Shown in pieces: positions 9,501 to 12,500 of a stretch of DNA of 64,000 nucleotides. Position 1 is the first letter of the stretch, and each line of letters starts with the position of its first letter. Origin of the DNA: Leucoraja ocellata (taxonomy: Eukaryota); NCBI GenBank assembly GCA_036785375.1, contig JAWMAR010000023.1:5828001-5892000 (forward strand), given 5' to 3'. A program made the position numbers and the translations under genes. The notes under the pieces were generated by a model. The model had not been told where the DNA came from. It searched no databases and was given only the letters and a program-made list of their open reading frames with translations.

Positions 9501-12500
9501 CACACACGTACACGCGCACACACGCGCACACACACACACACACACACACACACACACACACACGCACACACACGCAATCCCTGTCATGCTGACGATTCCT
9601 CTCCCCACCTCCCCGGGACATCCTCCATCTCTTGGCCTTCCCTTCCACACTCCCTATCACACACCAGTGCACAGGTCCCGGGGACGTGGGGTCAGAGGGG
9701 ATCCAGGGGGAGGGGTGAATCCCTCACTCTTGTAAAGCTGTGACTCAACGGACCCATTCTCTCATTGCTCCCTCCCCCACCCTCCCCCCACCCTCCCCCA
9801 CCCCCCCCCCCTCCCTGGGAGGATTCCAAGGAGAAGGTTTCTCCACTAAACGTGTGGCTGTACGCACCAGGCCTATGCCACAGGGAGACAGACATTGGAC
9901 AGGGTAGGACTTTCTTCTCGGAGCGCAGGAGGATGAGGGGTGATCTTACAGAGATGTATAAAATCTTCAGAGGAATAGATGGGGTGAACGCACAATCTTT
10001 TACCCAGAGTAGGGGAATCAAAAAACAGAGGACCCCCTCAGGTTTAAGGTGAGGGGGGAAAGATTTAATGTGAACCTGAGGGGCAACCATTTCAGAGTGG
10101 TGGATATATAGAACGGACTGCCAGGGGGAGGTAGTTGGGGCAGATATTATAACAATAGATATTTGGATAGGTACATGGATAGAGGAAAGGTTTGGAGGGA
10201 AATGGATCAAATGCGGGCAAATGAGACTTGCTCAGATGAAGCGTCTCGGTCAGCATGGTCGAGCTGGGCCGAAGGACATGTTTCCGTGCAGTATGACTCT
10301 AAGCTTGTGGTGCCTCCCTCCCCCGCCCTCTCTCTCTCTCCCCAGGGCCTACGTCTCGCTGTTCATGAGGCACTTGTGTGAGCCGGGTGCGGATGGATCG
10401 GAGACATTTGCAGATGGCGTTCCCCGTGAGGGGTTGTCCCGGCAACACGTGCTCACCAGGATAGGCGTGATGTCACTGGTCAGGAAGAAGGTGAGTTGGG
10501 AATGTTGCAGCTTGCTAACGGCATTGTGGAAACTCTTGTCTACGTTGAAGGCACTATGGCACAGCTGGTAGTACTACTGCCTCACAGCGCCAGGGACCCA
10601 GGTTTGATCCTCGCCTCGGGTGCCGTCTGCGCGGAGTTTGCACGTTCTCCCTTTGATCGTGTGGGCTTCCTCCAGGTGCTCTGTTTTCCCCACACACCCC
10701 AGAGATGTGCGGGATTGTAGGTTATTTGTCCTTTGTAAAATTATTCCTAGTGTGTCGGGAGTGGATGATAAAGTGGGATAACACAGAACTAGTGTGAATG
10801 GGTGATCGATGGTTAGAATGAGCACTGTGGGCCGAAGGGCCTGTTTCCCCAGTGCAATCATTAATTTTTGTTCAATAAGCTGAGGGATAGAGAGCTGGCG
10901 CTTGTGGGCAGATCATAAAGTCCCTCTCCTCTTGACTGTTGTGTAGGTAGGATAGATTTAGTTTTAGTTTAGAGATGCAGCATATAAACAGGCCCTTTGG
11001 CCCTCCTGTACACCAGTTCTATCCCACAGATTAGGGACAATTTACAGAGGCCATTAACCTATTACCTGCATGTCTTTGAAATGTGGGAGGAAACGTGGTG
11101 ACACAGAGAACATACAAACTCCGTACAGACAGTGCCTGCAGCCAGGATCGAACCCAGGTCTCTGGCGCTGAGGGGAACAACTCGGCCATTGTGCCACTAT
11201 GCCGCCAGCTGGGAGTATCAGAGGTTTGAGAACTTGTCTGATGCACTTCAGACGTATTTGGTTCAGTGGAAGCAGGGATTGAATTTCATTCTGAGGAAGG
11301 GTCCCGACCCAAACCGTGGTCTGCCCATCTCTTCCACAGATGCTGCCTGACCCGCTGAGTTCTTCCAGCACTTGGTGTTTTTGCACAAGGATTGAATTGT
11401 AGCTCTGGCAGCCAACATGAACCATGTACATAAAACAGTAAAATGTGGGAGATGTCCACTGGGTCAGAGAGTGAAGGGATTCACAATTGTTTGTATATTT
11501 TCAGTCTCAGTCAACTCAGAATGCCGGCAGTACTGCCCACTAGTGGCAGTGCAAGTAGTAGCAGGACCTGGCTCCTGTAAAGCAGGTTGACTTTTGACCA
11601 GGGGGACTACTGACTAATTCAACAGCAACATAATCTAATCTTGCCCCAGTTATAAGGAGACATACACAGTTATGTCTCGTTAATTAATAAAATATCGGCT
11701 TCAGTCTGAGGAAGGGTCTCGACCCGAAATGTCACCTGTTCCTTCTCTCCAGGGGTGCTGCCTGACCCGCTGAGTTACTCCAGCATTTTGTGTCTACCTT
11801 CGATTTAAACCAGCATCTGCAGTTGTTTCCTACACAAAATACCGGCTTGCCTGATAAACAAAGAAACGTGTGTCGGAAGGTTTACACCGAAGATAGACAC
11901 AACGTGCTGGAGTAACTCAGCGGGTCAGGCAGCATCTCTGGAGAAAAGGAGTAGGGAATATTTCATGTCAAAACCCTTCCTCAAACTCAAACAAAGAAAC
12001 ATTAATGTGCATTCTGATAAAGTCGTGCGTTCATATTTTTTGTTAAGTTTTGTGCACATGGTGGCGAATGGCACATTCTGGTAATCAATGACACACTCCT
12101 GAGTGAACGACAGCATAGATTGGACAGAGAGTAAAACGTTCTCTATTCTCTTCAGTAAATACTCCCTTTGAAGGTGGAGCAAGTCAAATATATAATAAAG
12201 CTTGTTGTGTGTAAGGTGGAGCTGCAGATGCTGGTTTCCACCAAAGATATTTAAGGTTAGTTCTGTTGATGACGTTTTGTGGGGAAGGTAAAAGCGGGCT
12301 GTGCGGGGCTGGGGAACGATAAGGTTGGATAAAGGTCGGGTCTGATGAAGGGTCTTGACCCGAATCATCACCTATTCCTTTTCTCGAGAGATGCTGCCTG
12401 ACCTGAGTTATAATAATAATAATAATAATAATAACTTTATTTGTATAGCACATTTAAAAACAACTCACGTTGACCAACATGCTTTACATCAGTGCAGGTA

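Follow-up and report, generated by a model that had tools for sequence, protein, structure and literature searches.

The locus examined here raises two questions: whether a short dispersed repeat that looks like a hammerhead ribozyme is the trace of a mobile element, and whether its copies in the introns of a host gene still cleave. The window, 64,000 nucleotides (nt) of Leucoraja ocellata DNA (assembly GCA_036785375.1, contig JAWMAR010000023.1, positions 5,828,001 to 5,892,000), contains many pieces of this repeat, several of them in a gene of the CHD3/4/5 subfamily. Our answer, to which we give a probability of roughly 80%, is that the ~135-nt repeat carries a minimal type I hammerhead and is likely the pseudo-long terminal repeat (pLTR) end of an endonuclease-positive Penelope-like element (PLE), and that its intron copies are decayed and probably do not cleave. 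A reading made from the letters of the window (the sequence-only reading) had proposed a minimal hammerhead of the PLE kind; the core letters, the inverted arms, the tail and the target duplications all support it.

The pattern described in that reading is real. At up to three mismatches, it is matched nine times in the window against 0.01 expected (11291, 11706, 12342, 12928, 17248 and 20386 on the + strand; 11984, 21658 and 36682 on the - strand). That reading also listed pieces at ~6265-6295, 694-712 and 36001, and all of them are confirmed, the copy at 6292 being without 3 nt of stem II. With a profile built from the window copies, nhmmer finds 26 pieces of the repeat, a density of about one per 2.5 kb. 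Both halves of the motif stand in gapless register in ten copies, a count that leaves out the 6292 copy (3-nt gap) and the 5'-truncated pieces.

The focal copy (11702..11835, +) is the best nhmmer match and consists of a 4-nt leader, the hammerhead motif, a body and a 3' tail, with a target duplication at both ends. Its motif (11704..11735, +) lies in the letters CAGT CTGAGGA A GGGT CTCG ACCC GAAA TG TC ACCT: the 5' strand of helix I at 11704-05, CUGAGGA at 11706-12, an extra A at 11713, stem II at 11714-25, GAAA at 11726-29, positions 15.2/16.2 at 11730-31 (UG here, CG in the family majority), U16.1-C17 at 11732-33 with the predicted cut after 11733, and the 3' strand of helix I at 11734-35. 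By majority, the ten copies give an entire minimal type I hammerhead (CUGAAGA, extra A, 4-bp stem II from G-C, GAAA, CG, UC). The core elements CUGANGA, GAAA and UH follow each other in hammerhead order around stem II in this majority, in the focal copy and in the family majority alike. In order-2 Markov DNA, a minimal-hammerhead descriptor is matched 1-8 times per 40 Mb, according to its strictness, which corresponds to ~1e-5 to 6e-5 per 300 nt.

For the family as a whole, four public runs were compared with 11640-11870 at 80% likeness: contigs in X1 and X3, RNA reads in X24 and X22, the RNA reads being those of a related species. The differences from the focal copy are taken from the 40 of 62 that were listed, so that no conclusion follows for a position missing among them. 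The family majority has three of the four features that Cervera 2014 adds to such a descriptor: an extra base after A9, the G10.1-C11.1 pair and the ACGU palindrome. In the window, the extra A between A9 and 10.1 is found in 10/10 copies, and the 10.1-11.1 pair is G-C in eight of them and G-U in two. The palindrome belongs to the family majority (position 11730 is C in 68.6% of the reads of X24 and in 62.0% and 61.3% of the contig depth of X1 and X3), but the focal copy has AUGU, and ACGU is kept in one of the ten copies.

The start of the consensus had been given as GGGT-CTGA. This form is seen in 3/10 copies, whereas the majority has CAGT at this place, which leaves a helix I of 2 bp in the common form, against 4-5 bp in the three GGGT copies. 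The GGG at 21658 is an overlap with the GACCC of an inverted arm, and the bases upstream of 12342 also read GACCCGA on the other strand. Among the upstream loose ends listed for X22, a pyrimidine tract runs into CAG-TCTGA.

The placement among PLEs is carried by the way the copies are inserted. Inverted pLTRs, palindromic junctions, an optional tail of 30-40 nt and target duplications are the signature described for these elements (PMC3846280, PMC8557442), and in the Poseidon PAc element of the anole, the tail equals the distance between two internal start sites of the reverse transcriptase (RT) (PMC11167929). The 3' ends of the 26 pieces are bimodal: 12 fall at model positions 129-144 and nine at 96-114, with none at 115-128 and five shorter. 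Read depth in the public runs drops at ~11796 and ~11835, although subfamily divergence may add to the first step. The optional tail of the focal copy is thus placed at 11797..11835 (+, ~35-39 nt, boundary approximate), where the bimodal ends agree with the depth steps and with opposite-strand joints at 11796 and 11834-37. Such joints occur family-wide, in DNA as well as RNA runs.

In all three clear head-to-head units, the tail is found on one arm only and the junction lies inside stem II. The unit at 561..822 is made of a tailed arm (561-694, -), a short piece (695-725) and a tail-less arm (730-822, +), with an 11-nt duplication at 558 and 818. At 24140..24332, a palindrome is centred in stem II/loop II, with a tailed - arm, a tail-less + arm and a 14-nt duplication at 24130 and 24330. 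In the third unit (21536..21724, no duplication found), the tailed - arm (21536-21662) overlaps the GACCC of the + arm, which yields the GGG-TCTGA form. Exact flanking direct repeats of at least 10 nt (10-14 nt) border 6/20 units tested, compared with 0.27% of 3000 random intervals; five of these six are A/T-rich and one is C-rich. The focal copy is a seventh case, its left (11689..11701) and right (11836..11848) duplications being identical at 12/13 positions.

At 11750-11825 and in other tailed copies, the tail also carries CAGCATCT, whose reverse complement, AGATGCTG, stands ~55 nt further upstream. The two pair in the folds of the 561-694 and 24140-24260 copies, and the tail may thus, in these models, close a stem near the priming sites.

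These features can be joined into a mechanism. A protein with RT and GIY-YIG domains would nick A/T-rich DNA and prime internally at two sites ~35-39 nt apart, giving tail-less and tailed 3' ends, as suggested by the two 3' ends seen here and by PMC11167929. Copying of a long RNA would then leave 5'-truncated copies with upstream extension, or would stop at an RNA 5' end 4-6 nt before CUGANGA and leave solo stubs. The junction sequences suggest that the cDNA would often snap back on GAC/GTC or stem II microhomologies, producing head-to-head palindromes and the GGG-TCTGA form. Once inserted, the copies decay, the CpG of G12 changing at the rate of other CpGs, as is seen below. In the source element, to judge from the literature, cleavage by the motif would be no more than weak, carried out by dimers joined through ACGU, possibly with the help of protein, and the RNA that is copied would be uncleaved.

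Several observations weigh against this reading. A six-frame search of the window for PLE protein motifs gave two chance matches and no RT or GIY-YIG open reading frame (ORF). The common form has a helix I of only 2 bp, whereas Cervera 2014 gives 4-5 bp for the main family of Schistosoma. The model search that the sequence-only reading had itself proposed likewise gave nothing with Rfam: there are 0 matches at the gathering score over the window and none to a hammerhead at E<=10 over 11650-11800, a miss to be expected because the motif is without loop III. The sequence-only reading had stated that stem II stays paired across variants. Pairing holds, in 82.5% of cells, but none of the four pairs shows a two-sided change, the variant being a U-A to U-G wobble; over the ten copies, a small sample of close subfamilies, 0/7 stem pairs covary on both sides. 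The hammerhead dimer lies far above the free cofold in all six real pairs tested, and for the majority sequence, it reaches -6.7 kcal/mol against -19.7 kcal/mol for the minimum-energy fold. The clustering of 5' ends, finally, comes from four copies. Besides these points, RNAalifold gives no structure on 20 gapped copies, five of six single-copy sequences fold no better than shuffles and none folds as a hammerhead, and a hammerhead descriptor demanding at least 3 bp in helix I has 0 matches.

Nor did the search for a linked protein close the case. The peptide in the frame of a candidate ATG, ~45 nt after C3 and past the cut site, has no homolog among longer proteins. Its profile matched two Logan ORFs, P0001 and P0002, whose ends translate the repeat (61% over 33 aa), and an RT-like stretch is joined to the repeat in P0001, P0002 and P0005. 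We take the middle of P0001 and P0002 to be the stretch of RT motif 6-7 and thumb of a PLE, which is not confirmed. An Atlas query with the RT-like stretch led to eukaryotic clusters, with PF26215 in 15% of the members of one of them (score 0.95). As further points on the negative side, Pfam, NCBIfam, PDB, two homolog searches and a second Atlas query did not confirm the RT identity of P0001 and P0002, and the two are probably a single locus; the RT-like fragment with its repeat is therefore only a lead. One follow-up search of the pair gave only the same locus family, and the rest were uninformative. Pattern scans for longer elements gave 0 and 0 in viral contigs, 0 and 0 in metagenome contigs and 0 in genome contigs.

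The sequence-only reading had also spoken of a high-copy, non-autonomous family, PLE- or retrozyme-like. High copy number and PLE descent are supported, but self-propagation or a retrozyme nature is not shown: tandems of complete hammerheads are absent from the window, and part of the copies continue at their 5' side into sequence of a longer element. The repeat is found in 192,629 contigs of X1 and 220,951 of X3, and it matches 54,424 of 12.9 million RNA reads in X24 (0.42%) and 41,652 of 17.6 million in X22 (0.24%). At least three sequence subfamilies are present. No description of this particular family was found in literature searches, which do not cover repeat databases, so that it may well be catalogued.

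Such numbers favor, among the alternatives, a self-propagating derivative resembling a short interspersed nuclear element (SINE), in which stub copies would give short master RNAs that are mobilised in trans by a PLE protein. This is a tentative possibility, with a real though minor chance of being correct. Besides the abundance and the subfamilies, it is favored by a stop in the ATG frame in one subfamily and by the fixed 5' ends at TCAGT, which resembles the initiator (Inr) consensus. The promoters of Penelope are, moreover, internal, downstream of the start (PMC2377424). However, the upstream-extended copies (17248, 6371, 6292 and 20386, plus thousands of X22 loose ends at 11701-2) mean that long templates are used too, and internal priming on an autonomous mRNA alone can yield stubs.

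The 5' ends themselves deserve attention. In the four solo copies whose duplications are clear, the first base lies 4, 5, 4 and 6 nt ahead of C3, never at the cut site; two further pieces (157 on -, 20608 on +) have model starts at most 3 nt from the cut site, with no clear boundary. By motif likeness, TCAGT stands before the core, and a pyrimidine-YAG tract before TCTGA and before the candidate ATG. It is conceivable, though rather doubtful, that the stubs are footprints of the 5' end of the mRNA of the autonomous element, with an initiator start 3-5 nt before CUGANGA and the hammerhead, closed by a helix I of just 2 bp, at the cap and upstream of the ATG. Priming by the RT at 5'-proximal tail sites and copying back to the cap would give stubs; at 11984 and 12928, where the copies begin with GAGT, a cap G may have been copied. 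If true, a protein-assisted or dimeric cut would remove a capped leader of ~31 nt and leave the mRNA decapped with its ORF untouched: the ribozyme would be an off-switch for translation of the element and not a maturase. With more than 1e5 copies in the genome, the positions of their 5' ends would alone suffice to test this.

The distance from the ATG to the tail is a multiple of three in 7/10 tailed copies, which is a hint only, as it reflects two subfamily lengths. Copies 6371+, 17248+, 20386+ and 24266- have two pyrimidine tracts with YAG, one immediately ahead of the candidate ATG and the other ahead of TCTGA. From their sequence, these two tracts are possible splice acceptors flanking the hammerhead.

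About as improbable as the cap-proximal start is a hammerhead likeness that is a relic or coincidence, the motif being kept as a promoter, splice or protein-binding sequence and non-catalytic even in the source element. The short helix I and the lack of covariation fit it, and one subfamily has a competing hairpin, with GAAAC buried in it, that equals stem II in stability (-5.0 vs. -5.4 kcal/mol). In vitro, moreover, insertion of PAc is unaffected by hammerhead mutants (PMC11167929). On the other side, all core letters are present together with features outside the descriptor, and the motifs of related PLEs show weak cleavage, either as dimers or in the presence of protein (PMC4209133, PMC11167929). 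Furthermore, among the window copies, the non-CpG core positions vary less than the non-core ones (8/100 vs. 30/150, P=0.011), in a sample biased by copy choice and subfamily differences; this fits selection in the source elements.

A non-LTR retrozyme, in which tandem units are cut by their hammerheads, circularised and re-integrated, is very unlikely. Li et al. 2026 (10.64898/2026.07.22.740005) trace animal retrozymes to pLTRs and report some from the single chondrichthyan in their sample, and X24 often shows a partial tandem joint. Nevertheless, no head-to-tail unit with two complete hammerheads exists in the window, and the frequent tandem, which also occurs in DNA contigs, restarts at ~G12 and is without CUGANGA. 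The motif is minimal, whereas the hammerheads linked with retrozymes in Cervera 2020 (PMC7229834) are canonical type I ones with loop contacts, and no copy with a defined boundary begins at the cut site.

The partial tandem is a head-to-tail repeat of ~66 nt (11727-11792) following a tail-less end, with 1,088 joint reads and 2,646 loose ends in X24. It holds only the substrate half of the hammerhead and looks like a minisatellite born from the repeat.

There remains the fate of the intron copies, which had been thought to be latent self-cleavage sites. That most copies have mutated cores is correct: 7/10 miss at least one core base. All 12 core positions are kept in three of the ten, and among these, only 11706, which has lost the palindrome, keeps stem II; no copy in the window combines core, stem II and palindrome. 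G12, which lies in a CpG, is mutated in 20% of the reads of X24 and in 11-12% of the contig depth, compared with 13-14% for the non-core CpG at 11769; as it decays like a non-core CpG, the copies are not selected for their core. The focal copy and the antisense copy ~30 nt away form a predicted hairpin of -171 kcal/mol (z -16) that would bury the motif in the host pre-mRNA. There is no pile-up of read starts or ends at the cut site in the two RNA runs, although libraries of these types, fragmented oligo-dT and single-cell, can reveal one only poorly. A look-up of RNA data sets containing 11200-12500 listed none, a result without bearing on expression. With 0 intact copies, a focal copy predicted to be paired antisense, an unprotected G12 and no read-end pile-up, latent cleavage in CHD introns is unlikely.

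That sense copies are live self-cleavage sites in CHD pre-mRNA (11706 as enzyme and 12342 as substrate, for example) is the least credible explanation of all: 11706 does keep its core and stem II, the cross-dimer can form three helix III pairs and 14 of the 22 pieces in the gene are in sense, but the intact unit of the dimer has a 2-bp helix I, the dimer reaches -9.5 kcal/mol against -28.9 kcal/mol for the free cofold and -171 kcal/mol for the inverted-repeat hairpin, no read ends accumulate, and the orientation (14 sense vs. 8 antisense) is not different from 50:50 (P=0.29). A strand bias against sense copies was looked for in these same counts and not found. In X22, a single-cell run, 3 to 9 times more reads lie on the - strand over 11696-11840, most skewed at the 5' end, and X24 is nearly even; we guess that the skew results from internal oligo-dT priming on the purine-rich antisense flank.

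The focal copy lies in an intron of the CHD3/4/5-subfamily gene (10491..13263, +, GT/AG ends), which contains seven pieces of the repeat, the focal copy and six others. The antisense copy (11868..11988, -) is an independent insertion with C3>U, a broken stem II and its own 12-nt duplication at 11856 and 11989. The two insertions form an inverted repeat of ~110 bp within 11690-12000, a candidate duplex, on the predicted fold, for A-to-I editing or for modulation of splicing. Upstream stands a solo copy without tail (11286..11388, +) with G12, A15.1 and H17 mutated and a 10-nt duplication at 11276 and 11389. Downstream, within 12207..12410, a tail piece (12207-12249, -) is followed by a copy (12338-12410, +) with A15.1>U and an interrupting AAT run, and a tailed copy (12924..13048, +) has A13>U and a broken stem II.

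Elsewhere in the window, two divergent copies, 6247-6294 (-) and 6367-6504 (+), lie in 6247..6504, each with a short upstream extension. The tail-less copy at 17120..17339 (+) includes, on its upstream side, ~125 nt of pyrimidine-rich sequence of the element, with an approximate 5' boundary, and has an intact core with a stem II mismatch. It is surrounded by a diverged direct duplication (17080-17164 / 17347-17424, 72% over 88 nt), longer than the other target duplications. A tailed copy at 18304..18432 (+) and a tail-less one at 36001..36091 (+) are 5'-truncated. The region 20384..20640 holds a tailed copy (20384-20511, +, G12>A) and a rearranged unit (20555-20640, -, 14-nt duplication). The solo copy without tail at 36597..36688 (-) shows G12>A, U16.1>A and a 14-nt duplication at 36583 and 36689. 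Further pieces are found at 60-157 on the - strand and at 12715-12739, 32605-32684 and 38601-38673 on the + strand.

The host gene on the + strand is assigned to the CHD3/4/5 subfamily by Pfam matches of Helicase_C, DUF1087, CHDII_SANT-like and CHDCT2 on its exons. The - strand contains a near-identical Kv beta-2 exon, and KCNAB2-like (Kv beta-2) exons at ~41400-61850 on that strand converge on the CHD gene. The latter is presumably CHD5, from synteny with the Kv beta-2 gene. The GC content falls from ~50% to ~37% across the window. Further dispersed repeat families lie at 1586-1823, 2847-3101, 8768-8941, 9898-10301, 19365-19678, 58337-58828 and other places; we take them to be ends of CR1-type long interspersed nuclear elements and an elasmobranch SINE.

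A short repeat that ranks among the commonest in this vertebrate genome is thus placed with the PLEs and their known minimal hammerheads, and its intronic copies call for caution before such repeats are named active ribozymes. The abundance, the sharp 5' and 3' ends and the snap-back junctions inside the ribozyme make a good data set on where the template RNA starts and on whether cleaved RNA is copied. The role of the PLE hammerhead is still open (PMC8557442, PMC11167929); that of PAc cuts only with protein and is dispensable for insertion (PMC11167929).

Compared with known systems, the repeat shares with animal non-LTR retrozymes its pLTR origin, a non-coding sequence, a type I hammerhead and high copy number (PMC7229834; 10.64898/2026.07.22.740005). 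Unlike them, it occurs as scattered monomers and as inverted pairs and is not arrayed in tandem with a hammerhead per unit, and its ribozyme is minimal, whereas retrozymes are tandem and canonical. The minimal hammerheads of metazoan PLEs are closer. Cervera and de la Peña 2014 (PMC4209133; reviewed in PMC6765202) described them in PLE termini, as thousands of scattered single copies with weak dimer cleavage, and they also appear in Lunse et al. 2017, as cited in PMC6765202. They have the same type I core with an extra base between 9 and 10.1, G10.1-C11.1, no loop III, a palindromic 15.1-16.1, thousands of dispersed single copies and opposite-strand pairs. The repeat differs from them in its common helix I of 2 bp (as in a D. 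virilis variant) and its stem II of 4 bp with a 4-nt loop; the accessible part of PMC4209133 names fish, coelacanth, frog and reptiles and not cartilaginous fish. As for endonuclease-positive PLEs, most copies here are, in contrast, stubs of ~90-135 nt without ORF, and the ORF of PAc begins at stem II, whereas the candidate ATG here comes later (PMC11167929). The pLTR and tail insertions of these elements (PMC3846280, PMC8557442, PMC11167929) nevertheless show the same head-to-head arms, palindromic junctions, 30-40 nt tail at one end and target duplications. In Poseidon PAc too, the hammerhead lies ~100-140 nt upstream of two 3' ends and, in the part of the source that is accessible, no RNA-seq ends are reported at the cut site.

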